Source of the DNA: an uncultured bacterium
GTDB lineage: Bacteria > Bacillota_I > Bacilli_A > RFN20 > CAG-826
Reading direction: 5' to 3'
DNA length: 64,000 nt
Assembly: GCA_949297275.1 (NCBI GenBank)
Contig: CASFQR010000001.1
Location: forward strand, 93-64,092
The notes under the pieces are model-generated. The model made no database searches and had not been told where the DNA came from. It saw only the letters and a list, made by a program, of their open reading frames with translations. The position numbers were made by a program, and so were the translations under genes. Positions 40,723 through 57,200 of the stretch are shown here, one piece after another. How positions within the stretch are numbered: the first letter of the stretch is position 1; each line of letters opens with the position of its first letter.

Positions 40723-41817
40723 TTATTTAATGTCACTAATGGAGGTAATTTCTCGATCACATAAATCCAAATCCTCGTTTATACCTTCAATCGTGAAAAA
40801 ATCTCGCGGAGGTAAAAGGGCGTTATCAACACTAAGTCGCGTTCCAAATTCATCAATAGCGAATGCTTCAATGATGGACGCTGCCTCTTCACCAGGTGAC
40901 CACGCTAGGGTGGTAAAAACGCTATGATAGCCCTGCTCTTTAACTAATTGTAAGGCTAATTCACGCGCGCGAAAAGCACCACAAACATCAATCTTATGAG
41001 GATCTTTCCCATAGATTGCCCCACCACCAATTGGAATCGCTGGACCATAAAAATCAAGGCATAATTTCTTCCCCGATAACCCATTATCGCCAATCGGCCC
41101 ACCTTGGATAAAATCACCCGCCCCATTAAGATAAAAATATTCATTATCAATCGTCGCTAAGGATTGCAAGATAGTGCCACTAAATAAATCATCTAGGCAA
41201 TCATCAACGGACTTTTTAACTAACTCAAATAAAGACTCAAACGATCTTGCTCTTTTATGTTGAACACTGATGGTAAGTCGCTGCCACTGATAGATGCCAT
41301 TATTACTATTAATCTGCGTTAAGATTTTAAAATCTGGACCAACTGTTAACCAACCGCTTAGTTTTATTTTTAATTTTTCCCCTAATTTAAGTGCAACAAA
41401 ATGTTCAATTGGTAGATAATCAGTTTCAGGGGAATTTAAAGCATAACCATGAACGACATTTTGATCATCACTATATTTTCTTATTTCTCTTTCGTCATCA
41501 GATAATTTTTCAATACAAACATCTAAATAAATTTCTAATTCTTCGGGATAAGGATGAAAATCTAAAGTAGAACCATATCCTGCTTCTAAATAGACTATTT
41601 TAACGATATCTTTGATTTTTTCTTCGTCAATGACTTCTTTATCTTTTCCTGCCGCGATTCTCCCATCAATAAAGACCTTATTCGTATGAATCGCACATTC
41701 TAAACCACATAAAGCGTCTTGATCATAATAAACAACATAATCAACTATTTGATCAACAATCGCATCGCATAAGCGATCGGGATGACCAGGTGAAACATAT
41801 TCAGCTACTAATATCAT
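40723..41817 (-). CDS. Divergent MetK-family methionine adenosyltransferase (SAM synthetase)-like protein
   Basis: Aligned by eye to E. coli MetK as I recall it. 'SPGHPDRLCDAIVDQIVD' matches SEGHPDKIADQISDAVLD, and 'DDQNVVHGYA' matches GDQGLMFGYA. 'GGPIGDNGLSGKK' matches GGPMGDCGLTGRK, and 'IGGGAIYGKDPHKID' matches HGGGAFSGKDPSKVD. It is shorter (364 aa) and has several substitutions in conserved blocks. Confidence 0.75.
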   Translation of the reverse strand: MILVAEYVSPGHPDRLCDAIVDQIVDYVVYYDQDALCGLECAIHTNKVFIDGRIAAGKDKEVIDEEKIKDIVKIVYLEAGYGSTLDFHPYPEELEIYLDVCIEKLSDDEREIRKYSDDQNVVHGYALNSPETDYLPIEHFVALKLGEKLKIKLSGWLTVGPDFKILTQINSNNGIYQWQRLTISVQHKRARSFESLFELVKKSVDDCLDDLFSGTILQSLATIDNEYFYLNGAGDFIQGGPIGDNGLSGKKLCLDFYGPAIPIGGGAIYGKDPHKIDVCGAFRARELALQLVKEQGYHSVFTTLAWSPGEEAASIIEAFAIDEFGTRLSVDNALLPPRDFFTIEGINEDLDLCDREITSISDIK

Positions 41818-41819
41818 GT

Positions 41820-43139
41820 TTAAAACTCCTCAAAATATTTGGTAATATTTAATAAATAATATTTGGTATAATTCCCGAATAAACCGCAATAAATTTCCAC
41901 TTGTGAGGCTTTAATCTTTTGATAATATGTTGATGAAACTTGACCAGTATCGCCATCAGTTAGAATTAATATTTTCTTTGTTTGCTTATGTTTTGGTAAA
42001 GAAAAATAATGATTAAAGATACAATCTAAAGAAGTACCACCAGTAGATTTAAATTTACCGTCGCGGAAATCTTGATAAGAAATCGATGTAACGGTTGTTG
42101 AAAAGGTAAAGAGCAAACATTCTTTATTTTGATATGGTTTTAATAAAAGCGGGGCAAAATGTCTTATCTCATCGACAACCGAACCAGAGACATCGAGATA
42201 GACCATCGAACAAACATTACTCTCCCTGACTCTTTGACGATTGATTAAAGTGGAATGATATAAAAGGGGCTTTTGGTACACGAGTGATTTAGCTAATAAG
42301 GTTCGATCTTTATAATCGGGCACTAAGGAGATGGCATCTTCTTTTAAATATTGGGTGGAGTTTTGTCTTTTGGAAATATTATCTAGTAATACACCTGATT
42401 TTCTTAATAATCTTTTCATTTTATTTTTAGCGATGCGATCTGCTTTTGCTAATTGAATAACTTTATTCTCTAATTCACCACCTAAATCACGACCATTAAA
42501 AGTCATTTCTTTTGGCCATTTAGTAATTACTTCATCAAACATTCTTTTTAATAAGGGATTATTCATGTCGTCATTCTGTCTAGAATGATTGCCTAAAAGA
42601 AGATATTGACCGTTTTGTAACAGATCTTTTAATTCTTTTAAGATGCATTCATAGACCTCAAAATAAGTGCCAGTGTTAGTGAGATATAAATTTTTTAAAA
42701 TAGGAATAAATTTTGCAGGTGTATTTTTTCCTAGTGGCCGTAAAATGCAGCTTGGAAATGTTTCTTCGCTATTCGCATTTTGAAAGAAAGAAACATATTC
42801 TTCACCAGGAAACATCCGGCATAACATCGCGTTAATCACCGCATCAAAAGCGATATTATCAATTTTACTATGTCTTTTAAATAGATGCGTGTGTCCTAAA
42901 ATAATGTGATAAAGCTCGTGCATCACTAACATAAAGAGATGTTCGTTGCTTTGACAATAAGTATCAACAAATGCTTTATTTAGGATTAATTCTGGTCGAG
43001 CACTACAAGTAATTGCTGCTGAAGATGTCTCGTCTTCGCTAAAACGAATATCCATCAATTTTAAAAACTCCATCATGTGTAAAGAACTTGTAGGAATCAC
43101 CGCGAATAATCTTTTTTTAATATCGTTAATCTCGCTCAT
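41820..43139 (-). CDS. HExxH metallopeptidase-like (DUF2201_N-type) + von Willebrand A domain protein
   Basis: N-terminal half has 'FMLVMHELYHIILGH' (HExxH). C-terminal half has the MIDAS motif 'VYLDVSGSV' (DxSxS) and a downstream 'LILTDGDTG'. The start overlaps the upstream stop (ATGA). Confidence 0.75.
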   Translation of the reverse strand: MSEINDIKKRLFAVIPTSSLHMMEFLKLMDIRFSEDETSSAAITCSARPELILNKAFVDTYCQSNEHLFMLVMHELYHIILGHTHLFKRHSKIDNIAFDAVINAMLCRMFPGEEYVSFFQNANSEETFPSCILRPLGKNTPAKFIPILKNLYLTNTGTYFEVYECILKELKDLLQNGQYLLLGNHSRQNDDMNNPLLKRMFDEVITKWPKEMTFNGRDLGGELENKVIQLAKADRIAKNKMKRLLRKSGVLLDNISKRQNSTQYLKEDAISLVPDYKDRTLLAKSLVYQKPLLYHSTLINRQRVRESNVCSMVYLDVSGSVVDEIRHFAPLLLKPYQNKECLLFTFSTTVTSISYQDFRDGKFKSTGGTSLDCIFNHYFSLPKHKQTKKILILTDGDTGQVSSTYYQKIKASQVEIYCGLFGNYTKYYLLNITKYFEEF

Positions 43140-43594
43140 GAATTTACCTCCCTAGCAGGAAAAAGCAAAATGCGTTTAAATTTATTTTCTACAAAACTAA
43201 GTGGACGATTAGGAATATATAAATCACCTACTGTCGAAGCAAAGACTAAGATGAGTAAAGGAATATTTCTACATGTTTTATGATGATATTGTTTCATCAA
43301 GCATTTTGATTCAAAAAGACTAATATTTTCATTCTTTAGTTCAATCGCTTCGGCTATCATATAGCCGGTTGGTTTTTCAATCATTCGACCAAGATCTGGA
43401 TGCTTTTTATAGTAATGTTTAACCTTTTTCTCTAATTTTGCTAAATTAAATTTATGAATTCCAAGTAAAAATGCGAGCATCACAGGATTAAAAGAAATAT
43501 ATTCTTCTAATTGTTCTTGACGAAATTTCACCTCACTGCGAGAAGGAGCGGACATGTTATGCAATAATCCACTCATAAATTGAGTTCCTCCCAA
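43136..43594 (-). CDS. Hypothetical protein (about 146-152 aa) between the MoxR and vWA genes
   Basis: No recognisable motif. The likely start is ATG at 43576, which overlaps the upstream TGA (ATGA) and has GGGAGG 9 nt upstream. Its stop overlaps the vWA start. Confidence 0.45.
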   Translation of the reverse strand: MGGTQFMSGLLHNMSAPSRSEVKFRQEQLEEYISFNPVMLAFLLGIHKFNLAKLEKKVKHYYKKHPDLGRMIEKPTGYMIAEAIELKNENISLFESKCLMKQYHHKTCRNIPLLILVFASTVGDLYIPNRPLSFVENKFKRILLFPAREVNS

Positions 43595-44973
43595 GTATCA
43601 ACAAAGAAAGCAAACAAACCTTTCGGCTCGTCTTCTGATACATATTGATCGGGTAAATAAGAACATAAATAATTATTTAAATATTTCTTATATTTAGCGT
43701 TATCAGGAACAGTATGCAGTAACACTACCACCATATCCGCGCATTTCTTCTTACTTAATGCTTCTAAAGAGATGTGTTTCTTCGTTTCTAAAATCGGTCT
43801 AATTTCATTCGCTAAAGTTTCCATAATAGCCGCGTGAATCTCGCTATTATCGCGAAAAGTTAAATAAGTAAATAAGGCCATCGCGCGACGAACTTTATCG
43901 TATTGAATTTGATTAAGCGAGGATAAAATCGCATCATTAATCATCTCAGTTTTGACCGTCTTCTTATTCTTAATTAATAGTTTTAATCGTTCGATTGGAT
44001 CATTAGTCAATAAAAGATCTTTTTCAATTGATTCATCTAGGCTTGCTAATTGCAAGGCTTGTTGACAAATATTCATGAGTAAGGTTTTATCAATCTCCTC
44101 ATTCGCTACATTAGGCAAAGTATTTTGAATATGTAAATAAGCGGCCTGATGAAACGATGCTCCTTGATTAAAATGACTATTAATTACTTTCATAGCTGCG
44201 TAGATATAAATAAAAGAATCTTCTAACATCGTCGCGCGACGAGCCGAAAAATAACCAAAAGAGTTTTTTAATAACCCCATCAAAGTAATGATATATTTAA
44301 CAATCGTTTCGAGGTTTGTCTTTAAAATATCTTGATAACATTCTTGAGTCTCTTTAATTAATGTATAGATATCAACGGGAAATTCATGTTTACCTAAATG
44401 ATTATCAATGAGCATGTTTCTTTTATCTTCATCATTTAAATTATCCCAAGTAGGTACTTCGATAATATAGGGAAAGCGATCTGCTAAAGCTGGATCGAGG
44501 GGCAAGGCCCCAATGTAAGATAAATCATCTTCCTCATCATCATCTTTACTTGGTGGATTCATGGCCGCCCAACGATATTTTAATTTGGTTAAATTTGTCC
44601 CTTGCACTCTTTTATCATAGATAATTGGGAACAATTTATTTTGTAATTCTGGTTTGGTGCGATTAAGTTCATCGATAAAAACAACTTCCGCATCCCAAAT
44701 CGCATTCGGGCTAGAAATATAACTTAAGGCCGTGTTGTTATTAACTGGAACAGGGATCCCCACTAAGTCGTCATAATTAATTAAAGAAGCATTATAACAT
44801 CTAAATGTTAAACCTAGGGATTCCGCTAGACGCTCTAAAATAAATGATTTCGCACTACCATGTTTCCCAATGAGAAGCAAAGGAGATTCGCTAGCTAAAG
44901 CCGCTAAAATAACTGGTTCTAAATGTGGCCAACCAAATAAGCCTAGTGGTTCGGTAATTAATGAATTATGCAT
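43573..44973 (-). CDS. MoxR-class AAA+ ATPase with long helical C-terminal extension
   Basis: Walker A 'LLIGKHGSAKS', Walker B 'VVFIDELNRTKPELQNKLFPI' (DE(I/L)NR hallmark), sensor-1 'AAMNP' and 'ALADRF'. AGGAGG lies 5 nt upstream of the ATG. Confidence 0.8.
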   Translation of the reverse strand: MHNSLITEPLGLFGWPHLEPVILAALASESPLLLIGKHGSAKSFILERLAESLGLTFRCYNASLINYDDLVGIPVPVNNNTALSYISSPNAIWDAEVVFIDELNRTKPELQNKLFPIIYDKRVQGTNLTKLKYRWAAMNPPSKDDDEEDDLSYIGALPLDPALADRFPYIIEVPTWDNLNDEDKRNMLIDNHLGKHEFPVDIYTLIKETQECYQDILKTNLETIVKYIITLMGLLKNSFGYFSARRATMLEDSFIYIYAAMKVINSHFNQGASFHQAAYLHIQNTLPNVANEEIDKTLLMNICQQALQLASLDESIEKDLLLTNDPIERLKLLIKNKKTVKTEMINDAILSSLNQIQYDKVRRAMALFTYLTFRDNSEIHAAIMETLANEIRPILETKKHISLEALSKKKCADMVVVLLHTVPDNAKYKKYLNNYLCSYLPDQYVSEDEPKGLFAFFVDTWEELNL

Positions 44974-45006
44974 ATATCCTCCTGACTAAATAGCCATAAA
45001 GAGGAT

Positions 45007-45140
45007 TAAAAACTCCCATCGCCATGATGGGAGTAATAAGTGTTAATAATTGTCCCCATCATGCAAGCTTTGGCACCCAACTTAACTTGGGTTGCCGGTG
45101 GATCATTGGGCTTGTCCCTAACCACACTCTTTATGGATAT
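45007..45140 (-). promoter_or_regulatory. SAM-I (S-box)-like riboswitch with terminator/antiterminator expression platform
   Basis: Minus strand: UAUCCAU-AAAGAG-UGUGG-UUAGGGACAAGCCC-AAUGA-UCCAC-CGGCAACC-CAAGUUAAGUUG-GGUGCCAAAGCUUGC-AUGAUGGGGA. It carries the S-box blocks AAGAG, (G/U)AGGGA..GCCC, AUGA, GGCAACC and GGUGCCAA. P1 pairs UAUCCAU (45139-45133) with AUGGGGA (45059-45053). The terminator is ACUCCCAUC-AUGGC-GAUGGGAGU-UUUU (45034-45008). The antiterminator pairs CAUGAUGGG with CCCAUCAUG. P4 is unusually short. Confidence 0.7.
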
Positions 45141-45176
45141 GTTTATATTATTGAACTTTTTTGCGAGTTTTAGCAA

Positions 45177-46043
45177 CTATTTTTTATTTATTTCGCCATT
45201 AAATTTGCTACTACCGATTGTTTGATGGAATTGTTTGATGATTGCCTCTATTTCAGGATCAATCATTAGATAAAGATATTTATCTTCAAAAGCTGACAAG
45301 GTTTTTGGTGAATAATATGCTTCACTGATTGCACCTGCCATCGCCCCCAGTGTATCGCAATCGCCTCCGAACGCGACACAATTTCTAATTGCATCTTCTA
45401 AACTATTAGAAATTAAGAAACAATAGATAGCCTGCGGCACAGATTTTTGACATATTCCAAAAAAGCGATAATCTTTTACTAATTGATCAAAATCTAATGT
45501 TGCTATTTCTGGATAATAATCAGCAATCATTCTTTCTCTTATTTCGTCTTTAGAGGCACCTTTTAAAGCAAGATAGATGCACATACTAACGGCTTCCGCG
45601 CCTTTTAAGCCTTCGATGTGATTATGAGTAATTTCAGTCACTGTTTTCACTAATAATTTTAAATGCTCTTCAGAATCGGCCACCCAACTAACAGGCGAAA
45701 TACGCATTGCACTGCCATTACCGTATGAATTATATGGAGGTGCAGGATATCCTAATGTTTTTGATTGGCGACACCATTTATAAAATAATGCCCCATAACC
45801 TGCTCGAGGATAACATTCATAAGCGTGAATAAATTCTTTGGCTAAATCAGCTTGGAGAACTTTAAGCGCTGACGCTGAATAATCAATCGGATAGTGTTTA
45901 ATAATGGTTTTAGCAACGGCAATTGTTAAATAAGAATCGTCGGTCATGCGCATTCTCTTATTATAAATATTAAATTGTTTAGTTTTAGAAGGATGAAATT
46001 CATAGATTGAACCCACCATATCTCCAATAATTGCGCCTAACAC
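45177..46043 (-). CDS. ADP-ribosylglycohydrolase (ARH/DraG family)
   Basis: N-terminus 'LGAIIGDMVGSIYEF', then 'MTDDSYLTIAVA', 'GNGSAMRISPV' and 'GGDCDTLGAMAGAISEAYY' are the characteristic ARH blocks. GTG start with AGGAG 8 nt upstream. Confidence 0.85.
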   Translation of the reverse strand: MLGAIIGDMVGSIYEFHPSKTKQFNIYNKRMRMTDDSYLTIAVAKTIIKHYPIDYSASALKVLQADLAKEFIHAYECYPRAGYGALFYKWCRQSKTLGYPAPPYNSYGNGSAMRISPVSWVADSEEHLKLLVKTVTEITHNHIEGLKGAEAVSMCIYLALKGASKDEIRERMIADYYPEIATLDFDQLVKDYRFFGICQKSVPQAIYCFLISNSLEDAIRNCVAFGGDCDTLGAMAGAISEAYYSPKTLSAFEDKYLYLMIDPEIEAIIKQFHQTIGSSKFNGEINKK

Positions 46044-46063
46044 CTTATCAACTCCTTTCTATT

Positions 46064-46092
46064 AGCATAGGAAACCTTTTATCTATCGTCAA
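46064..46092 (-). promoter_or_regulatory. Candidate promoter of the ADP-ribosylglycohydrolase gene
   Basis: On the minus strand: TTGACG (46092-46087), 17-nt spacer, TATGCT (46069-46064). Confidence 0.4.
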
Positions 46093-46105
46093 TTTTGATA
46101 GTCCT

Positions 46106-46813
46106 TTAATCCTGTAATTTTTCTAAAGCTTTCTTCACATGTTTTCTTGTTAAGCCTTTTTGATAATAGCTAGTTTGAATCAGATTTTTCGTTAATTTGG
46201 TTGCTTGATAATCAAACATTTCGCCGTCTAAAATAATGAATTTATCGATTTTAAAGCCTTTTTTCTTTTTTAAGCGTAAATATTCTAAAATGCCTTCGCC
46301 GCGATTAAGACAATAGTCATCATCTATTTTATCAATAATAGCCAAGCCCTGATCAGTGAATTTTTTATCTAAATAATTAGCGAGTTCATCTTGCAAAAAT
46401 TTTAGTTTTGATTCTTTTTGCCAATGTTCTTTCCACGAAGAAATTAAGACAATCAAAGCGTCTGTCGCTATCACTATTTCTTTTAATAAGGCAATTTTCT
46501 GATCCTCAATGCCTCGAAATAAATTGCAGCGTTCTTTAGTGGTAGAACAATTAAGTACACCATCAATATCAAGAAAAATAATCTTCATTCCTGGTCGATA
46601 TTCTTCTTTAAGTTCTAAATAAATCTTTTCTTTATTTATCTTCCCGTTCTCATTAATCATGCCTTTATCCATCAATTCATTAAATGTTCTTGAGGCTTGA
46701 TTAAAACCAAGCGACATTTCGCGTTGAAGAAAAGAGATTGATATTTTCTTTTCATCTAAGATCTTTTTTAATGTTTCTTTAAGATTGTTTTCCATTATAT
46801 TTATCTGATGCAA
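46106..46813 (-). CDS. FtsK-gamma-like winged-helix domain fused to HAD-superfamily phosphatase-like domain
   Basis: The N-terminal 'ISISFLQREMSLGFNQASRTFNELMDKGMI' resembles the FtsK gamma block (SISLLQRRLRIGYNRAARLI..ME..GIV). The C-terminal part has HAD motif I 'IIFLDIDGVLN' (DxDx[TV]). The likely true start is ATG at 46795, 5 nt after the upstream stop. Confidence 0.6.
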   Translation of the reverse strand: MHQINIMENNLKETLKKILDEKKISISFLQREMSLGFNQASRTFNELMDKGMINENGKINKEKIYLELKEEYRPGMKIIFLDIDGVLNCSTTKERCNLFRGIEDQKIALLKEIVIATDALIVLISSWKEHWQKESKLKFLQDELANYLDKKFTDQGLAIIDKIDDDYCLNRGEGILEYLRLKKKKGFKIDKFIILDGEMFDYQATKLTKNLIQTSYYQKGLTRKHVKKALEKLQD

Positions 46814-48231
46814 GCTAAAATTTCTGATGATTTCAGGTGCTTCTTCTCATAGAGCAATTGACCTAAGGCGAGGATTTCTAAGCGATGAGCTTTAATGTAT
46901 TTAGTTGTCTCTTTTTCACACTTTCTTAAGAATGCTTCAATCTTCTTTTCCATTTTTCTTCTTTTAATCGCAGTATCAGTTCTTGCCCCTGGTTCGATGA
47001 CTGGTAAGGTTTCCCAGCACGAAGAAAAACCACAAATATTAAACATGTTATAAGCGTAATTTCGTGCGCGTTGTAAATCACTATCGCAACCGCGCGAACC
47101 GCGACCACAAATAATCTTTTGAGCAATTAGACCCGCTAGAGAAATTTTAATGTCGGCAATAACCTTATCATAAGGCCAAAAATCTTTTTCAACCTCTTTA
47201 GCGATAAATTCCCCACTGGCACCCGAAATATTAATTCTACTCGTAATAAAGAATTCGGGAAAAGCTCTAGCCATGACAGCATGACCCGCTTCATGAATCG
47301 CAACTTCTAAATTATCTTCTTCTGGTCGACTTTTGACCCGATCAGCAATTTCATAGATTGAGTTATCGATCATTTCAGAAGTAAGATTATCAAAGCCATT
47401 TTTTAACACTAAATTATTTACTACCGCTTTAATGCCCGCGCAACTAATCCCCACGAGTGATAAAGCTACTTCTTCATCATCAAAATCAGCGGGGAATTTG
47501 AGATTAAATTCTTTAAAGTGTCTTTTAAGAAGTTCTAAAGCTTCTGCGCCAGTAGGATAAGAAATTTTAATTAGTTTTTCTAATCGACCGTGGCGAAGTA
47601 AGGAATCAGGTATTTCGTTAATAAAATTCGTGGCCGTGAGCACTAAGATATCATCTGATGATTCCACACCATCTAAATTTTCTTGCAAAGCGCGAATAAC
47701 TCTATTTTCCCTATTGATGAGTAAATCTAATTCATCAAAGACAATAATTGCATGACCAGCTTCGCGAGCTTTTTTAAATGTTTCAATAATGCCCCCAACA
47801 ATATTCTTTTGCGCCCCTTGGAAGACAAATACTGGTGCTTCCGCGCATCTAATAATTTCTTTAATTAATAAAGATTTGCCATTGCCGGGTTCACCATAAA
47901 GAATAACGCCTTTAGGTATCGATAAGCCTTTGGCCTTTAGTTCTTGCGAATGTTTAAACCAATCAATAACATAAAGAAGTTCTTTCTTTTGATTTTGATG
48001 GCCCACTACTCTCACTAAAGGTTCTTCGCCTTCCGCTAATTTTGAAGCATTAATAAATTCATAAGTGCTAAAGCCATCATTTGCTATTGATGAATCAAGT
48101 GTTTTATTTATATATCTATTTCCAATTTGAGTATCAGAAATATCTTCCTCGAATTCTTCAAAATAATCATCGTCATCATAATTTACATCAAATTGCTCTT
48201 TATCAAACATTTCTTTTGCTAATCCTTTCAT
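46801..48231 (-). CDS. Soluble (TM-less) FtsH-like AAA+ ATPase / M41 zinc metalloprotease
   Basis: Walker A 'GEPGNGKS', Walker B 'IIVFDELD', SRH 'LTATNFINEIPDSLLRHGRLE', M41 zinc site 'AIHEAGHAVMA', and an FtsH-like 'GCDSDLQRARNYAYNMFNICGFS' block. The N-terminal ~100 aa are acidic with no hydrophobic helix. Confidence 0.8.
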   Translation of the reverse strand: MKGLAKEMFDKEQFDVNYDDDDYFEEFEEDISDTQIGNRYINKTLDSSIANDGFSTYEFINASKLAEGEEPLVRVVGHQNQKKELLYVIDWFKHSQELKAKGLSIPKGVILYGEPGNGKSLLIKEIIRCAEAPVFVFQGAQKNIVGGIIETFKKAREAGHAIIVFDELDLLINRENRVIRALQENLDGVESSDDILVLTATNFINEIPDSLLRHGRLEKLIKISYPTGAEALELLKRHFKEFNLKFPADFDDEEVALSLVGISCAGIKAVVNNLVLKNGFDNLTSEMIDNSIYEIADRVKSRPEEDNLEVAIHEAGHAVMARAFPEFFITSRINISGASGEFIAKEVEKDFWPYDKVIADIKISLAGLIAQKIICGRGSRGCDSDLQRARNYAYNMFNICGFSSCWETLPVIEPGARTDTAIKRRKMEKKIEAFLRKCEKETTKYIKAHRLEILALGQLLYEKKHLKSSEILACIR

Positions 48232-48398: not shown

Positions 48399-49799
48399 TT
48401 AATCATTAATTTTTTTATTTTTATCGCTAACTAATTTAGCGTTATTAATAAGTGGCTGATATCTATTATGTTTATAGCGATAATATCTACCTGTTTCCAT
48501 CGCCTTGATGATAGTTTCTTTTCCAATATCATCTTGATATTTTAAGAGTATTCCTAAGAAGCGATTTCCTAAAAACGAGTTGATGGAAATCGGTGCAACA
48601 ACATCAATAACATCAGCAATACTCGGATTATTAAATAACCAGGAGACTAAAGCATTACGATTAATAGTAATATTAACGACACCAAATTTCGGATTACCAT
48701 CACCCTCATATTTTTCACATTTAATCGCGTATTCATCAACTTTTCTAGGAATTTCAATTGCCTTACCATGAGAAATGAATCTTTTATCAATTTTAAACTT
48801 ATTGCATTTAATAATTGGCATTTCTTTTCCAAAATATTCTTCAAATGACTTCTTCACCCTCATAGCGAAGCGATATTCAAAATAGAAAGATGATTTAAAC
48901 GCTAAACCATCTTCTGGCACGATTTGCTCAGCAACATATTCATCTAAAGATTCATAATATTTTGCTAAAAATTTATTATTAATTTTAAATAATTCATTAA
49001 GCCTATTATCGCTAGTCTCATCTTCCATTAATACTTCTCTTTTCGGGAGATGAGGAATATTAAGATTCTCAATTGCATCAAAAACCACACCGTGACGATT
49101 AAGTGGGATTAAGATTGCATAAGGTTTATTATTATGTTCTTCAATTTGATAGACGCGATAATATATTTTTTCCTCAATATTTCCAAAGCGCAATTTTGGC
49201 TTAATAGTAGAGTTATTATTTTCTTTAGGAAGTTGACCAAAATGAGTTTGAATAATTAAGATACTTTTCTTCTCTTTAAATGCTTCATTAACTAATCGCA
49301 ATTTTCGATTCATTAAAGTGTTATATTTCTTAACGCATTTATTCTCTTTTTCTAGTTCTTGTAGATAAAATTCTCGATTATGTTTATTGCTTAAAAAATC
49401 TAATAATTTGTTAATTAATAGATTGGTGTCATGGTCTTTCGTGTATTTATCATTTTGGATAGCCGCTAAAATTTTAATGATTTGTTCTTCATTTAAATGA
49501 TTCCTTTCTTCGATGTAGAATTTACCAGAATCCGTTGAATTTATCATAAATGGTATTTTATCGGTATTTGCAAATTTAAAACAAATCGCTTGCAACCATT
49601 GCAAGCAATCACCAATTCGTTGCCTTCTAACATCATCACCAGGCTTACCACCTTCATATTTCAATCCAAAAGTGCGCGCATAACGGCAGATTTCTTGTTG
49701 CGTAGCAGGATGATTAACATCTGTATATTTTAATAAATAATCTAAAGTTAATAATAATTCGATTCGATGAAGAACAGTATCACTAAATTTACTCATCAC
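48399..49799 (-). CDS. wHTH-domain protein, possibly WYL-type regulator (uncertain)
   Basis: The N-terminus 'LLTLDYLLKYTDVNHPATQQEICRYARTFG' looks like a DeoR/HTH_11-type wHTH. The central 'YYRVYQIEEHNNKPYAILIPLNRHGVVFDAIENL' only loosely resembles a WYL core. The track start is GTG; ATG one codon later is the likely start. Confidence 0.4.
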   Translation of the reverse strand: MMSKFSDTVLHRIELLLTLDYLLKYTDVNHPATQQEICRYARTFGLKYEGGKPGDDVRRQRIGDCLQWLQAICFKFANTDKIPFMINSTDSGKFYIEERNHLNEEQIIKILAAIQNDKYTKDHDTNLLINKLLDFLSNKHNREFYLQELEKENKCVKKYNTLMNRKLRLVNEAFKEKKSILIIQTHFGQLPKENNNSTIKPKLRFGNIEEKIYYRVYQIEEHNNKPYAILIPLNRHGVVFDAIENLNIPHLPKREVLMEDETSDNRLNELFKINNKFLAKYYESLDEYVAEQIVPEDGLAFKSSFYFEYRFAMRVKKSFEEYFGKEMPIIKCNKFKIDKRFISHGKAIEIPRKVDEYAIKCEKYEGDGNPKFGVVNITINRNALVSWLFNNPSIADVIDVVAPISINSFLGNRFLGILLKYQDDIGKETIIKAMETGRYYRYKHNRYQPLINNAKLVSDKNKKIND

Positions 49800-49887: not shown

Positions 49888-52351
49888 GAGGATAACATCA
49901 CTCCTAAACTAATAGGAAAAACATCACTATTAGAAAAGTGTTTAAGAGCACTCGAGGATAACATCACTCCTAAACTTAAAGTAGAATATTTCGCGAATGC
50001 TATAAGTTTAAGAGCACTCGAGGATAACATCACTCCTAAACATATGGATTATGGACGCAATATATTGCTGCGTTTAAGAGCACTCGAGGATAACATCACT
50101 CCTAAACATTTTGTCCAGAGATGCAAGATTGCAAATCGTTTAAGAGCACTCGAGGATAACATCACTCCTAAACCAAGAATTAACAATTAAGAAGTCTCAA
50201 TGCGTTTAAGAGCACTCGAGGATAACATCACTCCTAAACCTTATTACGGTTATAGTGTAGCACTTTTTAGTTTAAGAGCACTCGAGGATAACATCACTCC
50301 TAAACTTTAAAATTTGTCATTCTTTTTCCTTTGATGTTTAAGAGCACTCGAGGATAACATCACTCCTAAACCTTGTCTTTTGGCGATTTTTGATTACTAC
50401 TGTTTAAGAGCACTCGAGGATAACATCACTCCTAAACCTACGATCAAAAGAACGCCGTTCTGAAGCTGTTTAAGAGCACTCGAGGATAACATCACTCCTA
50501 AACAATAAATAATCGTAAATAAGATCAAACATAGTTTAAGAGCACTCGAGGATAACATCACTCCTAAACTAAACCACCATTAATAGATTGAGCATAAAAG
50601 TTTAAGAGCACTTGAGGATAACATCACTCCTAAACTATATTTTCTTTTTTTACTCTTTTTTTTCTGTTTAAGAGCACTTGAGGATAACATCACTCCTAAA
50701 CATAGATTTAAAAGAAGAAGATAAAGAAGATGTTTAAGAGCACTTGAGGATAACATCACTCCTAAACGATATAAAACTCTCTTTATATAATAATATAGTT
50801 TAAGAGCACTTGAGGATAACATCACTCCTAAACATCAAGACTTAACATTTGATTAAAAGAAACGTTTAAGAGCACTTGAGGATAACATCACTCCTAAACA
50901 ATTATAATTAATTATCTTTTCTTTTCTTTGTTTAAGAGCACTTGAGGATAACATCACTCCTAAACACCGGCTAATTCGATATATTTATAAAACGCGTTTA
51001 AGAGCACTTGAGGATAACATCACTCCTAAACATAATTAATATCAATATCAAGTTTACAAATGTTTAAGAGCACTTGAGGATAACATCACTCCTAAACCTA
51101 AGAGATATACTAGTTAATGGTAAAACTGTTTAAGAGCACTTGAGGATAACATCACTCCTAAACTCCAATGCGTATTATTTGGAATCATTGGAAGTTTAAG
51201 AGCACTTGAGGATAACATCACTCCTAAACAGTAGCAAACATTAAAGAAACTTCTTCCACGTTTAAGAGCACTTGAGGATAACATCACTCCTAAACAGTTG
51301 CTTGCCTGCTCCTCAAAAAGGTGATGTTTAAGAGCACTTGAGGATAACATCACTCCTAAACCAAAGAGTAGAGTTGATAAGCGACTTCGCTGTTTAAGAG
51401 CACTTGAGGATAACATCACTCCTAAACTAATATAGTAAATTAATAGAAAGTGAAAAAGTTTAAGAGCACTCGAGGATAACATCACTCCTAAACTTCATTT
51501 GTGTGGAACAATGCACGAATGAGGTTTAAGAGCACTTGAGGATAACATCACTCCTAAACTATATTTGTACCGGTTTATTGATTATAATAGTTTAAGAGCA
51601 CTTGAGGATAACATCACTCCTAAACACCTTTATTAGTGTTAACAATAACTTCATCGTTTAAGAGCACTTGAGGATAACATCACTCCTAAACCAGATGGCT
51701 TAAACATAACTATAGACTTGGGTTTAAGAGCACTTGAGGATAACATCACTCCTAAACCATAGTCGTAAGAGTACAAGTGTCCATTGTGTTTAAGAGCACT
51801 TGAGGATAACATCACTCCTAAACTCTTCTAAAATATCTAAATTAGGAACATAAGTTTAAGAGCACTTGAGGATAACATCACTCCTAAACACCTCGATTAA
51901 ATCTTTTTTAATGCAATTTGTTTAAGAGCACTTGAGGATAACATCACTCCTAAACAATTAATACTGAATTAGGTGCTAATGTATCGTTTAAGAGCACTTG
52001 AGGATAACATCACTCCTAAACTACAGTTAAATAATTTCCTTTAATTTTATAGTTTAAGAGCACTTGAGGATAACATCACTCCTAAACGATAAGTATGGAT
52101 CCTACCATTTAACTGTAGTTTAAGAGCACTTGAGGATAACATCACTCCTAAACTTAACAACAACAGCGGGTTCTATAGACATAGTTTAAGAGCACTTGAG
52201 GATAACATCACTCCTAAACCGTAATTTTATATTTTTTAAAGGGCTATCGGTTTAAGAGCACTTGAGGATAACATCACTCCTAAACAAAGGTAAAAGGTTT
52301 TTTTCAGCACTTTCGGTTTAAGAGCACTTGAGGATAACATCACTCCTAAAC
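49888..52351 (-). CRISPR. Type II-A CRISPR array: 37 full 36-bp repeats, one 22-bp decayed terminal repeat, 37 spacers of exactly 30 bp
   Basis: The plus-strand repeat GTTTAAGAGCACT(C/T)GAGGATAACATCACTCCTAAAC starts at 49940 + 66n for n = 0-36, each position checked by eye. The decayed copy GAGGATAACATCACTCCTAAAC is at 49888-49909. Transcription is inferred on the minus strand, where the crRNA repeat reads GTTTAGGAGTGATGTTATCCTC(A/G)AGTGCTCTTAAAC. Confidence 0.97.
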
Positions 52352-52404: not shown

Positions 52405-53076
52405 TTACTCCAAAAAACAACAATCTTTATCTATGATGAATGTCTTTTCGGACGCGAATTTCTTATTAAGTTGATTGGTTTCAATGTTAATTAAGATTAT
52501 TTCTTTATATGAAAGTTCTTTAATAAGCAATTCGATGTCTTCTTCCTCTAAATATTCTAGTAAATGAACCGTAATAAAAACATTTTTCTTTTGTAGTTCA
52601 TTAATGACAAAAATATAGTTAATTAGCTGTTCTAAATAAGTTTCTTTTTCATCATTAAATCTGATATCCATTATTTTAAATAAATCGTCAGTTTTAATAT
52701 CATCACTGGCAATTAAATTTATATCTAATTCTAAAGCAATTGTTTTGACAATATTTATGATTTTTTCTTTTAGGTTCGTAATATCGTCTTTTAATGAATC
52801 ATAGTATGTTTTCTTCAATAGTTTTGTTAAAGCGTTTAAGTTTTTCTTTGTATTTAAATCTAAATCAAGAACATTCATCATCGGATAACATATATCTTCT
52901 GCATCAATACTTGTCGCATCATTAAAAAAGGATATCGGACCATCTGTATTAAATTCTAAAAATAAAAATAATGCTGTTCTGCGGTATATTTCTTTATTTT
53001 CGATGATAATATTATAAAAAGTTCCTGGCTCGAGATTATATAAATTATCACTTAATTGAAATTTTATTTTAATCAT
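52405..53076 (-). CDS. csn2: Csn2 (type II-A adaptation protein, short form)
   Basis: 223 aa, directly after cas2 (4-nt overlap) and before the leader. Its acidic, Ile/Leu-rich composition and size resemble the ~220-aa streptococcal Csn2. Confidence 0.75.
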   Translation of the reverse strand: MIKIKFQLSDNLYNLEPGTFYNIIIENKEIYRRTALFLFLEFNTDGPISFFNDATSIDAEDICYPMMNVLDLDLNTKKNLNALTKLLKKTYYDSLKDDITNLKEKIINIVKTIALELDINLIASDDIKTDDLFKIMDIRFNDEKETYLEQLINYIFVINELQKKNVFITVHLLEYLEEEDIELLIKELSYKEIILINIETNQLNKKFASEKTFIIDKDCCFLE

Positions 53077-53393
53077 AATTTGATTATTTTCTCATCTGTC
53101 ATAATGACATCTGTGTTTAAATCACCTAACAAACATTGAATGGAGGAAAATTGTTTTTCGGTTAAGGTTAAGCAAGATACAAAACCTTCAGCCGGCAACA
53201 ATGATTTAATGCTTTTCATTGTTGCTTCAACCGCGGTTTCATTTAAACATAATTTGGTATAAACACTTTCTTGAAACATTGAGAAACCTTCTTTTTTAAT
53301 GTGCTTAACAAACTTGGAATATTCTTTGTGATCTTTTTTGGTCACAGCTGGTAAATCAAAAAACAAAACAATTCTCATAAATCTATATATCAT
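53073..53393 (-). CDS. cas2: Cas2
   Basis: 'MRIVLFFDLPAVTKKDHKEYSKFVKHIKKEGFSMFQESVY' shows the Cas2 ferredoxin-fold pattern (..YD(I/L)......Y..F.K.L...G....Q.SV(F/Y)). It overlaps cas1. Confidence 0.85.
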   Translation of the reverse strand: MIYRFMRIVLFFDLPAVTKKDHKEYSKFVKHIKKEGFSMFQESVYTKLCLNETAVEATMKSIKSLLPAEGFVSCLTLTEKQFSSIQCLLGDLNTDVIMTDEKIIKL

Positions 53394-54261
53394 AACTTTC
53401 CGGAAACTTAATTAGATTAGCATCGCCTTTATTTAAAGCATCAAATACCGAATTGCAATAAATGTTTATTGCATTTATAAATGTATGTGTTTGACCATTG
53501 ATAGGTATCTCTTCATTTAAGATTTCCTTTATTTTATCTTTGATATTTTCTGTTTCGTTTTCTAGTCTTTTGGCATATATATCAACATATGGTCTAAATG
53601 GTTCCATCAAATCACAAGCAAAATTAAATTCATTAAAATCATTTTTATGGTGAATTCCTAATTGTGTTAAATAACCGGCCGCTACAATCGCGCGACTTAC
53701 AAGCGATAAAATAAGCGAATAGCCGTAATTCAATATAAGATTTATATTGCAATCTTCAGTTCGTGAAAAACCTTCATGATAGAGAAAATTAAAATAGATT
53801 TTTGCTGCATGTCCTTCGCGATTAGTAATATCGTTAAAATCTACTTCTTTAAAATAATTTTCCAAAAGTATAGTTTTAGTAATATCCCTACCAAATTTAG
53901 TTAAAACCTTATATTGTCCGCGAATTTTATTTCTAACAATTTCTTGCCACACTACTCCTTTATTAGTTTCTGTCCATGAAATTTGCTCTTTAATTCTTTT
54001 TGGAGAATTATGCGCGCCATAAAGGGACACTAATTGACCAAAGGGATTATGCTTTTCATCGCAAAAAATAATATTGATTTTTCGCTTAAGCATTTCGACA
54101 AGCGCGCTAGAAGTTATCGAGATATTAGTTGTTTCAAAAATAACAGTTGATATTTCATCTAGATGTATGCGTTTAACACCATCGATCGTTCTAAAAACGA
54201 AATAATTTAAAGAATATTCAATTTTAGAATGTGAGGATATTACAACTGTTCGAAATGCCAT
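53383..54261 (-). CDS. cas1: Cas1
   Basis: 'NLILNYGYSLILS', 'LGIHHKNDFNEFNFACDLMEPFRPYVD' (the Cas1 GxxH...DLxEPFRP block). 292 aa; the start abuts the cas9 stop. Confidence 0.9.
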   Translation of the reverse strand: MAFRTVVISSHSKIEYSLNYFVFRTIDGVKRIHLDEISTVIFETTNISITSSALVEMLKRKINIIFCDEKHNPFGQLVSLYGAHNSPKRIKEQISWTETNKGVVWQEIVRNKIRGQYKVLTKFGRDITKTILLENYFKEVDFNDITNREGHAAKIYFNFLYHEGFSRTEDCNINLILNYGYSLILSLVSRAIVAAGYLTQLGIHHKNDFNEFNFACDLMEPFRPYVDIYAKRLENETENIKDKIKEILNEEIPINGQTHTFINAINIYCNSVFDALNKGDANLIKFPESYDI

Positions 54262-57200
54262 TATAATTTAATTTTCTTTTCAAATAAGCCTGTAGCTGAC
54301 TGTTTTAATAAATATACTTCTGGTTGATTTAAAATGTTGTTTTTACTTTTGGTATATTTACAATGAACCCTGTTCAAAGCATTTATAGTTTCAACTATAG
54401 CATGCGCTTGTTCATATAAAGAAAAATTTGAATAATTTTCATCTAGCAAATTTTTAAAGAATTTTGCAATCATTTTCTTTCTTGCGATTCTGAAAAATTT
54501 AGGACTATTCATTGTTGAAATTAAATTATCTCTAAGCAACTTGTTGTCTTTTTTAGAAATGACTATTTTGTTTTTATGTTCTTTGTCAGTAAAGTAATAA
54601 TACTCTTCAAGAGTCGAATCTAATTTACTTAAAACATCAATGTTTTTGAGAATTATTTTTAAATAGGAAAGGCAGTTGGAATTTAAAAATACTTGTTCAA
54701 AACTCGTTAAAGTCACGACGTCGGCGTTGAAATTAGTTAATAAATATCTATATCCACCGATTTCAATTGTAGATTTACTATTTATTGCTAACTCGTTATT
54801 TAATTTTGCGCCTTTTTCGTTTATATACTCTTTTAAAAGTTCTATATAATGATTATGCTTTTTATATTTTGAATCAAACATAATCGGAACATCAATCAAT
54901 TCCTTATCACCTTCGCTATTAGTGCCAATTACAAAATAGGCTGGTGCAAGATTAGAATAGCCACCATATTTATCCGTCCTAGCATATACCTTACTCTTGG
55001 TGTGCACAGGAATTAACGCTGCCGTTCCGCTTTTACTTGGATTTGCAACTATGTTTTGATTATAGAACGCGCCATCATTATATTGCTCGCGCATAGTGAT
55101 GAGCATATCTTGCCCTTCACATATTGTTTTAATCTTATCAATTGGCCTCTTAGAGTTATCTTTCTTATCGGATGGCCAATATTTTAATTTGTTTTCTAAT
55201 ACTGTTTCTGGGTTATATGTTTCTTTTTCGCCATTATTATTAGAAACGCTTTTTTTCGAGCGTAAATAAAATTTCTTTGTATAATATTGATTTAAAATAT
55301 TCCCCACTACAATATTTAAATATGCATCTACTGCATGATGTGTATCATTAAGTTCTCGCACTTTTACAATACCAAATCTATTTCTAACAAAAGAGACGTT
55401 TTCTGCTTTGTTAAAAATAATTTCAGCGTTTGGATAAGCAATTTTTAAAACGTTCGCTAAAAGAATGTTCGAGTGATTGACAACATTAACTTGACGATTA
55501 ATAAAGACATTCAGTTCGTCTTCGGTTAATTCCGTTTTTCTAATAAGGCGACTATATTTTTCTTCACTAATGGCGTTGATACTTCTCAGCCGTTTCCACA
55601 ATTGATATTGCTTTATTTGAATGTCTTGAGGCAATGGATAAATGTCTTTTTTGACTTTTTGATTTTCATATCTTTCTACTAAGACCAAGTTATCCAAGGA
55701 ATCATCCTTAATCTTGCTTTGAGGAATAATATGATCAATATCGTAGGTTTCTCCACTAATCACTTTATCGATGTCGATTTTTTTACCAGTATATAAATCA
55801 TAAGATAGTTGTTTAAAGTAAAGGTAAATGGCTTTGCCTTTTACATCTAATTTATGATTAACAAGTTCATCGTTTAATTCCTTCAATTCACTTAACGGAA
55901 AACCGCTCTTTTTATTACTCTTAAGACCATTAATAAATTTTTTCAATTCCTCATAACGCGGATCGCTCTTTTTACCCTTCTTTTCCTTTTTAGGATTTTC
56001 TCTAGTAGTTTCAATCGAAATTGTCTTAGGAGTAGATTTAGTAATTTTATTAATTTCAGAGATTATTTTAAGTGCCTGGATGGCTGGCCTACGCATCATA
56101 GGCGGTGCTTCTTGAATCAATTCATCGATGCGTTGATGCTTAGTTGCTTCACCATAAGATTTTTCATTTTCTTCCCGAATAATATCTAAGAAATTAAAAT
56201 GTTTGTCATTTAATATTTCTTGAAAATTTAAAGTTGTTTCATATAGTAAATCGATAATTGATTGCTTAACTTCGCCGGTGTTATCATTAAACCATTTTTC
56301 CGTTAATAATTTTTTGGATAAAGTTCCCCATTTTGAAGTATTTATTCTTTTAATAGCTTTAATTTGTTCATCGTTTAAATCATATTTGCTGGTGACTATT
56401 TCAACACCTTCTAATTTGTTATCAGCAAAAATAGTCAAAATTTTAATAATATCTTCAACTTTTTCTAATTGCTTCTTATCCTTTAAATTAAAGGTTCTGC
56501 CTAGTGTAGCGCGCGTTGAACAATCAAATTTATAGCTTGCATCAACACCGGATATTTCAATTTTATCATTTTTATATACTTCGTTTTTATTTAAATATCT
56601 CTTGATGGCCGAAATTGTTATAGAAGGATTGACACTGATTAAATTTTCAAATAAATCTTTTTTACATTCTTGTAAAATGCGATCACCATTTATTTTAATT
56701 GTATTAAGTATGTTTAACGCTACAAAGTCGCTATATAAAATCGAACTTTTTGGTAAAACAGTCTCATCTCTAAGATAAGTGCAATAATTCGTTAAACTGT
56801 CCATGAATTTGGCTTTAGTTTTAGAAGCATCGATAATTTTGTCTTTGTTCCAAGGCAATATTTTTTCGTCTTCAAATCCTTCATTTCTTACAACGTTGGT
56901 ATATTTTGAATCTTTCCATAATGGTCCTTCATAAAATTTTAATTTATAAAAGAATATGCTTAATATTTTGTCTTTTTCTTGTTGAATAAACGGAAAATAT
57001 TTACTTGCGTTATTCAAGATTTTTTCGAGCTCGATTTGATGGAATTGATGAGGAAACTCACTACCTTTTACATCAGCGATACGGGCTAAAAAATTACCTT
57101 TTTCGCATCTATGAATAATGTCTTGACCTAATTTATCGCTTTCATCGGGTTTGCCAATAAATTTAATAATGTTTTTGTTTAGGTCTTCTAATTTATTCTT

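Follow-up and report, generated by a model that had tools for sequence, protein, structure and literature searches.

A candidate P4-less SAM-I riboswitch in the leader of an AAA5-ATPase operon and its proposed double lock

The locus and its aptamer

Contig CASFQR010000001.1 (assembly GCA_949297275.1) comes from an uncultured bacterium, and a stretch of 64 kb of it was analysed here (hereafter the window, to which all coordinates refer). On its minus strand, a four-gene operon codes for a MoxR-type AAA+ ATPase, a 152-aa protein, a protein with a metallopeptidase-like motif and a VWA-like domain, and a divergent methionine adenosyltransferase (MetK-like). It is preceded by an RNA element with the hallmarks of the S-box, or SAM-I, aptamers that lacks the helix P4. 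Our preferred reading, to which we give a probability of about 0.85, is that this element is an S-adenosylmethionine (SAM)-sensing riboswitch which forms the 5′ leader of the operon and would control it through a double lock, on transcription and on translation. The features of the leader and of the operon are the following:

45147-45176, minus strand: promoter-like site (-35 TTGCTA, 18-nt spacer, -10 AATAAT), 9 of 12 matches in a consensus scan
45053-45139, minus strand: SAM-I (S-box) aptamer without P4, from the RF00162 score and covariation
45133-45139 with 45053-45059, minus strand: helix P1
45097-45127, minus strand: helix P2, split by an internal loop
45111-45114, minus strand: P2 loop CAAG, 5′ strand of the pseudoknot, complementary to CUUG at 45064-45067
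45072-45096, minus strand: helix P3
45064-45071, minus strand: junction J3/4, AAAGCUUG, which contains G45068 and CUUG (3′ strand of the pseudoknot)
45061-45063, minus strand: 3-nt linker CAU, replacing P4 and J4/1
45023-45063, minus strand: antiterminator, CAUGAUGGG (45055-45063, overlapping the P1 3′ strand) with CCCAUCAUG (45023-45031), nine Watson-Crick pairs
45008-45034, minus strand: intrinsic terminator from a terminator scan, 9-bp stem ACUCCCAUC/GAUGGGAGU, loop AUGGC and U-run
44994-45006, minus strand: element E, AUCCUCUUUAUGG, just after the U-run
44971-44983, minus strand: Shine-Dalgarno (SD) sequence AGGAGGAU (44976-44983) and AUG start (44971-44973) of the first gene
43573-44973, minus strand: gene 1, MoxR-type AAA+ ATPase (AAA_5), 466 aa, Pfam AAA_5 at 7.8e-13
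43136-43594, minus strand: gene 2, 152-aa protein with no recognised domain, 22-nt overlap with gene 1
41820-43139, minus strand: gene 3, 439 aa, HExxH motif (HELYHIILGH) and C-terminal VWA-like domain (DVSGS), 4-nt overlap with gene 2
40723-41817, minus strand: gene 4, divergent methionine adenosyltransferase (MetK-like), 364 aa, 2-nt gap after gene 3

The aptamer reads UAUCCAUAAAGAGUGUGGUUAGGGACAAGCCCAAUGAUCCACCGGCAACCCAAGUUAAGUUGGGUGCCAAAGCUUGCAUGAUGGGGA from 45139 to 45053 on the minus strand. The Rfam model of the SAM riboswitch (S-box leader), RF00162, matches it at 45053-45139 with 46.9 bits, above the gathering score of 44.4 (whole-window E = 1.4e-7), and the alignment is full-length, covering model positions 1-108. 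When the entire 64-kb window was scanned with Rfam 15 at gathering thresholds, this was the sole match. A permissive rescan of 44900-45250 returned no other credible match, one lower-scoring match to a family of the same clan being suppressed. The S-box blocks, the SAM-I identity and the P1 helix proposed by a first-pass annotation of this DNA are all borne out: the blocks are present on the minus strand where they had been placed, the covariance model scores above its gathering threshold, and P1 (UAUCCAU/AUGGGGA) forms six of seven pairs, including one G.U, with one A/G mismatch.

The same annotation had described a minimal P4. It was right that the P4 region is abnormal, but the helix is absent from the window aptamer and not reduced, 18 P4 model positions being aligned to a single nucleotide. 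The stretch CAAAGCUUG, which had been put in the place of P4, is in fact J3/4 with the 3′ strand of the pseudoknot; nor can it serve as a mini-P4, as GC-UU-GC cannot close a hairpin. Since only CAU stands between CUUG and the P1 3′ strand, the core of the aptamer is a three-way junction of P1, P2 and P3 with the predicted pseudoknot, and the four-way junction with P4 stacked on P1 is absent. For SAM binding by the yitJ riboswitch of Bacillus subtilis, two features are important: a long-range J3/4-J4/1 pair, U114-A138, and P1 stacked on P4 (PMC5602112). By analogy, G45068 (the G of GCUUG) would be the counterpart of U114, and the last linker base that of A138.

The absence of P4 does not exclude SAM-I membership, because Rfam accepts such sequences and natural P4-less members are on record. 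Indeed, the first principal component of the Rfam SAM alignment corresponds to deletion of P4, the helix is missing from some natural sequences, and P4-less aptamers designed with a restricted Boltzmann machine (RBM) respond to SAM in SHAPE (selective 2′-hydroxyl acylation analysed by primer extension) probing (PMC12714719). As cited in that paper, SAM aptamers function without P4 (Trausch 2014), and SAM affinity falls as P4 is shortened (Heppell 2011). On the strength of its sequence, the window RNA appears to be a genuine SAM-I riboswitch of a naturally occurring P4-less subtype.

This identity is favoured over the SAM-I/IV-like variant that had also been put forward. A second pseudoknot, PK-2, is common to SAM-I/IV and SAM-IV RNAs; those of SAM-IV have in addition a hairpin, P5, behind P1, and in those of SAM-I/IV the P2 is unsplit and the pseudoknot PK-1 missing (PMC6890682). 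SAM-I/IV (RF01725) is ruled out here: RF00162 comes out best among the clan members, the window RNA keeps a split P2 and the P2-loop/J3-4 complementarity of PK-1, and there is no signal of PK-2, the complementarity of the P3 loop to the 40 nt after P1 being equal to that of a reversed control. SAM-IV (RF00634) is ruled out as well, as P1 is followed by no hairpins other than the terminator and the SD hairpin and PK-2 is again without signal. A GUUAA/UUAAC match in the window was considered as PK-2 and rejected, not being kept in homologues. Both families belong to the clan of the window RNA, share its binding-site architecture between P1 and P3 and have no helix inside the junction at the position of P4; they differ from it by a hairpin 3′ of P1 and by PK-2, which joins the P3 loop to the 3′ tail.

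The window RNA shares with classical SAM-I riboswitches (RF00162; B. subtilis yitJ and metI, Thermoanaerobacter tengcongensis metF) the conserved core, that is AAGAG, GGGA..CCC with the P2 internal loop, and GCAACC..GGUGC in P3. They also have in common the P2-loop/J3-4 complementarity of the pseudoknot and a P1 3′ strand that doubles as antiterminator strand against an intrinsic terminator, in a SAM-OFF arrangement. In contrast to these RNAs, it lacks P4 and the purine-rich J4/1, has a 3-nt linker and a three-way instead of a four-way junction, and its long-range pair is G-Y and not U-A. It further differs by an additional post-terminator element coupling the aptamer 5′ end to the SD sequence, and by an operon that is not a known methionine/cysteine operon.

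Two side observations concern the aptamer region. On the 5′ side of the P2 internal loop (45119-45121, minus strand), the window has UUA where most SAM-I RNAs and most of the P4-less class have xGA, at the G.A position of the kink-turn (K-turn); this variant occurs in about a dozen related aptamers and is kept within the ATPase-operon subgroup. On the opposite strand, a 61-aa open reading frame (ORF; 45040-45225, plus strand) covers the whole riboswitch and is annotated as a gene in the public ENA contig (L001, 899-1084), in all likelihood wrongly.

Conservation and covariation of the P4-less aptamers

Eighty loci, labelled L001 onward, were obtained by a scan with one genome per species using an alignment of 16 relatives of the ATPase. 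Directly upstream of the ATPase gene and on the correct strand, RF00162 matches of 47-60 bits were found in L001, L002, L006-L012 and L014. L003, L004 and L005 carry the same P4-less aptamer, located by pattern; they fall below the Rfam cut-off because of a G-to-A change at the base of P3. Altogether, the P4-less aptamer stands upstream of the operon in 13/13 Firmicute/Tenericute orthologous loci, ten of which pass the Rfam cut-off. The paired blocks are conserved in these related genomes, as the first-pass annotation had asked one to check. An apparent P4 in Acholeplasma L008 and L009 arises where the Rfam model is extended into downstream sequence and is an alignment artefact; their true P1 3′ strand is GAUGG, as elsewhere.

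The P4-less junction can be written as GGTGCYAAWGCTTG, 1-6 nt, then GATGG. This pattern matched at least 120 metagenome stretches, of which, among those listed, 106 hold complete aptamers, and 40 stretches of viral contigs, with 17 complete aptamers. The P4-less form is not specific to the ATPase operon, since none of the metagenome matches listed lies upstream of a homologue of the ATPase. Helix pairing was counted on an explicit structure in 123 distinct P4-less aptamers (hereafter the class), because RNAalifold, run on the 123-sequence alignment, missed P1 and mis-paired the base of P3. Paired cells amounted to 91.0%, against 82.9% in shuffles, and none of 500 shuffles was as high. Cells changed on both sides numbered 332, for 131 in shuffles, and the covariation score was 0.262, to be compared with 0.127 in shuffles and at most 0.079 in slid registers; changes on both sides were seen at 14 pairs.

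The signal is spread over the helices. P2a is 92% paired, with all five of its pairs changed on both sides, and P2b 99.5% paired, its middle pair being AU in 72 and GC in 50 aptamers. P3 is 93% paired and has five covarying pairs. The four core pairs of P1 are formed in at least 120 of the 123 aptamers, one of them being C-G in 84 and U.G in 36, and its outer pairs are variable. As for the pseudoknot, CAAG/CUUG is paired in 99.8% of cells, with CAA invariant and the G present in 122/123, the 3′ strand being fixed by the search pattern; it rests on complementarity and conservation because its strands never vary. The linker has 3 nt in 118/123 aptamers. Its last base, which the pattern does not fix, is a pyrimidine in 117/123 (C in 67, U in 50), its partner, the G of GCUUG, having been fixed; a G-C or G.U pair can therefore take the place of the long-range U-A pair.

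The U-A and A-U pairs of P1, which presumably face the SAM sulfonium as in solved SAM-I structures, are present in 120/123 aptamers. In the numbering of the window aptamer, A6, U7, G11, C46, A47, U65, G66, A81 and U82 are invariant or nearly so in the class. These include the A-U and U-A pairs of P1, the G of AAGAG, and the C-G pair and A.U of GCAAC...GGUGC, which we take to be the SAM-contact positions of the solved structures (Montange and Batey 2006). The ligand is probably SAM.

The class resembles the P4-less RF00162 aptamers of PMC12714719 in having a SAM-I core without P4. It differs from them by its invariant CAAG/CUUG pseudoknot and by its hosts: the P4-less group singled out in that work is from Actinomycetota, whereas the class here belongs to low-GC, Firmicute/Tenericute-like genomes of gut, rumen and digesters and to mobile elements. 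The P4-less SAM-I subtype is thus already known; what calls for an explanation is the operon, together with the wider regulon.

A recurrent variant was observed beside the ligand pocket, where the second pair of P3 (CGACAACC...GGUGCC) is A.C instead of G-C in 13/123 aptamers (L003:5835-5922, L004:5274-5361, L005:2781-2866 and ten others). The three of these aptamers that were scanned with Rfam, those of L003, L004 and L005, gave no match at gathering threshold.

Expression platform, proposed control and rival readings

The terminator at 45034-45008 is the only terminator-like site in 44700-46300, in agreement with the 9-bp stem and U-run reported by the first-pass annotation. The SAM-OFF platform described there was also recovered: CAUGAUGGG is fully complementary to CCCAUCAUG, the antiterminator is the minimum-free-energy fold of a 118-nt nascent RNA, and P1 with the terminator wins at 128 nt. 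Pairing in 14 related leaders reaches 98.4% for the terminator, which has four compensatory pairs, and 90% for the antiterminator; the C/U changes are compatible with both partners. Across the class, a terminator-like hairpin with a U-run was found in 109/122 leaders, and a complementarity of at least 7 between the P1 3′ strand and the terminator 5′ arm in 62/109, for 11/109 in the control. The leader of L005 (2781-2915) has the aptamer, element E and the SD sequence and is without a terminator hairpin; for this reason it may regulate translation only.

Behind the terminator stands a conserved element, E (CCUCUUUAUGG), that can pair either with the aptamer 5′ end or with the SD sequence. The ten nucleotides at its 3′ end exactly complement CCAUAAAGAG (45127-45136), which comprises the P1 5′ strand and J1/2; CUCUUUAUGG is the stretch of E that would pair with CCAUAAAGAG or with the SD flank. 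The 5′ part of E pairs with the SD region, and the E:SD hairpin has a predicted energy of -12.6 kcal/mol. A complement of at least 10 nt to the aptamer 5′ end is present downstream in 37/122 class leaders, against 9/122 for reversed sequences and 1/113 in an upstream control, and in 27 of the 37 leaders it begins 8-14 nt after the start of the U-run. Moreover, E covaries with the P1 5′ strand in leaders whose downstream genes differ: CCAU goes with ..UAUGG in 26 cases and with ..UAUAG in none, and CUAU with ..UAUAG in nine and with ..UAUGG in two (Fisher p = 4e-7, uncorrected for relatedness). In the local minimum-free-energy fold, the SD sequence is paired with E in 35/36 E-carrying class leaders, and the flanks covary (mean z = -3.9).

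Folding of the window RNA gives -53.6 kcal/mol for the state with P1, terminator and SD hairpin (165-nt RNA) and -52.6 kcal/mol for the enforced state in which the aptamer 5′ end is paired with E (A:E) beside the antiterminator (180-nt RNA); the two full-length states are thus predicted to be nearly isoenergetic. The A:E state is the best fold of the 147-nt prefix, in which E has been made and the SD sequence has not, and the folds of growing prefixes switch in the order that a double lock requires.

Between the stop codon of an upstream ADP-ribosylglycohydrolase (ARH) gene (45177) and the aptamer, where no convincing promoter had been seen earlier, lies the promoter-like site TTGCTA-18-AATAAT (45176-45147), which begins right after the stop codon and whose -10 hexamer ends 10 nt upstream of the P1 core. 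Within 30 nt upstream of P1, at least five of six positions of TATAAT are matched in 91/125 class leaders, for 37 in a control window further upstream; in 66 of these 91 leaders the end of the box falls 8-10 nt ahead of the P1 core, and an extended TG is present in 38. The orthologous leaders L002, L008, L009 and L010 have good -10 boxes behind unrelated upstream genes.

We propose the following mechanism. The leader's own promoter probably directs initiation about 7-10 nt ahead of P1. At high SAM, the ligand would lock P1, so that its 3′ strand is unavailable for the antiterminator; formation of the 9-bp terminator would then end transcription at about 45008. Should RNA polymerase read through, the aptamer 5′ end would be occupied, and E would pair with the SD region and block translation. 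At low SAM, the P1 3′ strand and the terminator 5′ arm would form the antiterminator; the freed aptamer 5′ end (CCAUAAAGAG), which mimics the SD context, would capture E as soon as it is made, leaving the SD sequence open and the operon transcribed and translated.

Riboswitches acting at two levels are known: E. coli lysC, thiM/thiC and ribB couple translation to RNase E or Rho, and in other leaders the terminator overlaps the SD sequence. The window leader would share with these the control of both completion of the transcript and initiation of translation by a single aptamer. The window leader differs from them by an intrinsic terminator and a separate SD-sequestering hairpin in series, and by a single element that would choose between the aptamer 5′ end and an SD context mimicking that end. 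No description of a terminator plus SD-hairpin design for SAM-I was found in the titles and abstracts among the literature matches listed, which is absence of evidence only. A recurrent terminator and SD hairpin, with an anti-SD that alternatively pairs with the aptamer 5′ end, would provide compact, one-aptamer control of transcription and translation. Such a platform is easily testable and could be reused in engineered switches.

Several points speak against this reading and limit its precision. The Rfam score of the window aptamer is just 2.5 bits over the cut-off, and a P4-less RNA may bind SAM more weakly, because P1-P4 stacking and the length of P4 matter in yitJ. Within the close family, the pseudoknot and the A:E helix are invariant; the support for A:E comes from the wider class and is uncorrected for relatedness. 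Left unconstrained, the 180-nt leader takes on a mixed structure as its minimum-free-energy fold, and the two-state picture is for that reason a simplification. The promoter match is only 9/12, in AT-rich DNA. Finally, the regulon of the class is very unlike a normal methionine/SAM regulon, which leaves some room for another ligand or another physiological logic.

The first-pass annotation had suggested that the riboswitch may be an internal gate, without a promoter of its own, that attenuates a transcript initiated at ARH, in which case ARH would be expressed constitutively and the operon only at low SAM. It is true that ARH and the operon are on the same strand with a 37-nt gap (ARH stop at 45177, aptamer from 45139), that the terminator scan shows no terminator-like site between them, that the local promoter match is weak, and that L003, L004 and L005 too have ARH or its neighbours ahead of the operon. 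Yet a -35/-10 pair fits into this gap, its -10 box ends 10 nt before P1, where most of the class has it (66/91 at 8-10 nt), and the leaders of L002, L008, L009 and L010 have good -10 boxes behind unrelated genes. Read-through from ARH is not needed to explain the leader, and an own promoter seems to us the better reading; an internal gate as such is unlikely, if still the most serious of the alternatives. The two do not exclude each other.

Other doubts concern the ligand and the functional state of the RNA. The class might sense S-adenosylhomocysteine or another adenosyl-sulfur compound, or report only very high SAM. In yitJ, SAM binding draws on both P4 and P1-P4 stacking (PMC5602112), an A.C mismatch lies beside the binding site in 13/123 aptamers, and the first genes of 96 class members are mostly not methionine genes (13 FGase-like, 4 MetK). 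We nevertheless hold an altered or weakened response to be improbable: the nucleotides known to contact SAM are all conserved, including the P1 U-A and A-U pairs in 120/123; natural P4-less RF00162 members are on record and the RBM-designed ones respond to SAM (PMC12714719); MetK and the S component of an energy-coupling factor (ECF)-type transporter are among the regulated genes; and orthologous operons elsewhere use standard SAM-I and SAM-I/IV. A decayed S-box, which lost P4 and regulates nothing any more, would account for a score barely over the Rfam cut-off, for a P1 with one A/G mismatch and one G.U, and for UUA in place of the usual GA at the K-turn. It is very hard to reconcile with an architecture, UUA included, that is kept with compensatory changes in orthologous loci (52-77% protein identity) and in more than 120 independent leaders, and with the retention of the terminator, antiterminator, E and SD complementarities; we give it hardly any credence. 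A SAM-responsive leader with its own promoter and two locks thus remains our preferred reading.

The operon, its orthologues and the wider class

The start codon of the ATPase gene (44973-44971) lies 80 nt past the aptamer and 35 nt past the U-run, behind an AGGAGG SD sequence. The element is hence the leader of an operon that starts 80 nt on, and its target is not a gene more than 4 kb away, as had been proposed with the metK-like gene in mind; that gene is the fourth of the operon, and its start (41817) is 3.2 kb downstream of the aptamer, with three genes between.

The ATPase has at least 2500 relatives, some of which are named MoxR family ATPase by their sources. The 152-aa protein gave no significant match in Pfam, NCBIfam, PADLOC or PHROG and is syntenic in the Firmicute and Tenericute relatives. 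The 439-aa protein has sub-threshold matches to DUF2201_N and VWA_CoxE, a pair that recurs in orthologues, the one in L058 passing the VWA_CoxE cut-off; it appears to resemble the DUF2201-type partners of MoxR ATPases and is syntenic in nearly all 80 loci. The MetK-like protein matches all three S-AdoMet synthetase domains, the central one with 22.0 bits, under the Pfam cut-off of 29. It reaches 132 bits with TIGR01034 for a cut-off of 309 and about 100 bits against solved MetK structures, and keeps the motifs GHPD and GGPxGDxGLxGxK...GGGAxxGKDPxKxD. Among solved structures, no relative was found for either the ATPase or the VWA-like protein, and our literature search found no paper that brings together at least three of MoxR, SAM riboswitch, S-box, methionine adenosyltransferase and vWA.

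The MetK-like protein (40723-41817) also matches PHROG 1569, a phage family without known function, at 1.2e-44, better than the bacterial metK equivalog, and shares about 27% identity with the short MetK found in streptococcal prophages (Javan phages). The VWA-like protein had no match in 50,697 phage records; with this and the mere 27% identity of the MetK-like protein to the prophage MetK, carriage of the cassette by cultured phages was rejected.

The cassette of ATPase, (small protein), VWA-like and MetK-like genes is syntenic in Firmicute, Tenericute, PVC (Planctomycetes-Verrucomicrobia-Chlamydiae)-type and Planctomycete metagenome-assembled genomes (MAGs), and Chloroflexi have ATPase / x / VWA-like only. 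In Acholeplasma L008 and L009 and in Hydrogenedentota L048, L054 and L071, a SAM riboswitch precedes the ATPase gene with no metK-like match downstream in the DNA fetched; the riboswitch therefore follows the ATPase gene and not the metK-like gene. The aptamer before the orthologous operon is not always of the same type. SAM-I/IV (RF01725) was found in L013, L016, L017, L019, L023, L029, L030, L034, L036 and L045, which are Lentisphaerae/Kiritimatiellae/Verrucomicrobia-type (PVC-type) MAGs, P4-containing SAM-I in L048, L054 and L071, and P4-less SAM-I also in L037, labelled Spirochaetales. Five Chloroflexi-type loci that were scanned (L056, L065, L076, L078 and L075, the record of the last being labelled Pleurocapsa) gave no SAM aptamer at gathering threshold. 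As SAM-clan aptamers of three architectures precede the cassette in several phyla, there is strong comparative evidence that it belongs to SAM physiology, and this link provides a handle on a MoxR system without a known role. In Acholeplasma L008 (6547-6927), a gene for DndE, of DNA phosphorothioation, follows the ATPase/VWA cassette at the position that the MetK-like gene has in other genomes.

Beyond this operon, the first downstream genes of 96 class leaders were compared with Pfam, with the following counts:

FGase-like amidohydrolases: 13
MetK: 4
PriA: 3
BspA-type leucine-rich repeat (LRR) proteins: 3
ARH: 2
IS1595 transposases: 2
HlyD: 2
ECF S component: 1
C5 DNA methylase: 1
MoxR-like AAA_3: 1

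Most of the remaining first genes belong to no Pfam family. By sequence clustering, the commonest gene behind P4-less SAM-I riboswitches is that of an approximately 100-aa family with the motif ..EGFTFGDG.KPT.., which has 17 metagenome members and whose representative had no Pfam or PHROG match; it also follows 10 of the 17 complete copies in viral contigs. That P4-less aptamers stand before small uncharacterised genes in mobile elements and viral contigs suggests SAM-dependent control outside methionine metabolism.

About 5 kb separate the window operon from a type II-A CRISPR-Cas locus, with an array (49940-52351; about 36 repeats of 36 nt with a 66-nt period) and then Csn2, Cas1 and Cas9 (52405-58307). 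The genes of the operon itself gave only a marginal PtuA-like match (E = 0.0018), and the idea that the downstream genes of the class are known defence genes found no support, PADLOC recognising a single cytosine methylase among the 96 first genes. Neighbourhood and gene set are compatible with SAM sensing related to conflict or to mobile elements. More speculatively, the class could be a "low-SAM alarm" of gut and rumen Firmicutes and of mobile elements, which would switch on accessory or conflict genes when SAM collapses, for instance through a phage SAM-degrading enzyme or a heavy methylation demand. Its targets would then be the MoxR/VWA-metallopeptidase/backup-MetK cassette by CRISPR-Cas, the approximately 100-aa orphans beside orphan DNA methylases, and the FGase-like and ARH-like enzymes, all kept otherwise fully silent by the terminator and SD double lock. 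The ATPase cassette, with its three SAM aptamer architectures across phyla, would be a new SAM-homeostasis or defence module. We consider this scenario doubtful.

Concerning the neighbours of the approximately 100-aa genes (examples at L111:1245-1544, L212:5364-5666 and L231:5018-5338), the gene stands alone on the opposite strand between neighbouring genes in L212 and L231. Two DNA methylases, a large C5 enzyme and an N6/N4 enzyme with a ParB domain, are among these neighbours in L212, along with DUF4314; the sampled neighbours of such genes also include GmrSD in L113 and a transposase in L111. Between the window operon and its CRISPR-Cas locus, a 466-aa ORF (48399-49799) is without a Pfam match.

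Three genes on the same strand lie upstream of the riboswitch in the window (45177-48231, minus strand), encoding ARH, a protein with FtsK-gamma and HAD_SAK_2, and an FtsH-like AAA and M41 protease with weak similarity to IetA. L003, L004 and L005 likewise have parts of this trio ahead of the operon, and in some loci of Kiritimatiellia type (L022, L026) the upstream genes include ARH-like ones. The literature matches listed in a search on FGase and ARH held no mention of either. In L113, two P4-less SAM-I riboswitches (3816-3900 and 7208-7294) are 3.4 kb apart on one contig, one before an orphan gene of 134 aa, behind which stands a gene for a GmrSD-type restriction endonuclease, and the other before an ARH gene. 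The ARH start codon of L113 (2664-3900) is about 360 nt past the aptamer; in L105 (1151-2241), the ARH match starts about 500 nt past it, in an ORF that opens about 280 nt downstream. With ARH genes downstream of the riboswitch in L105 and L113, and just upstream of it in the window, ARH seems to be part of the SAM regulon in some relatives.

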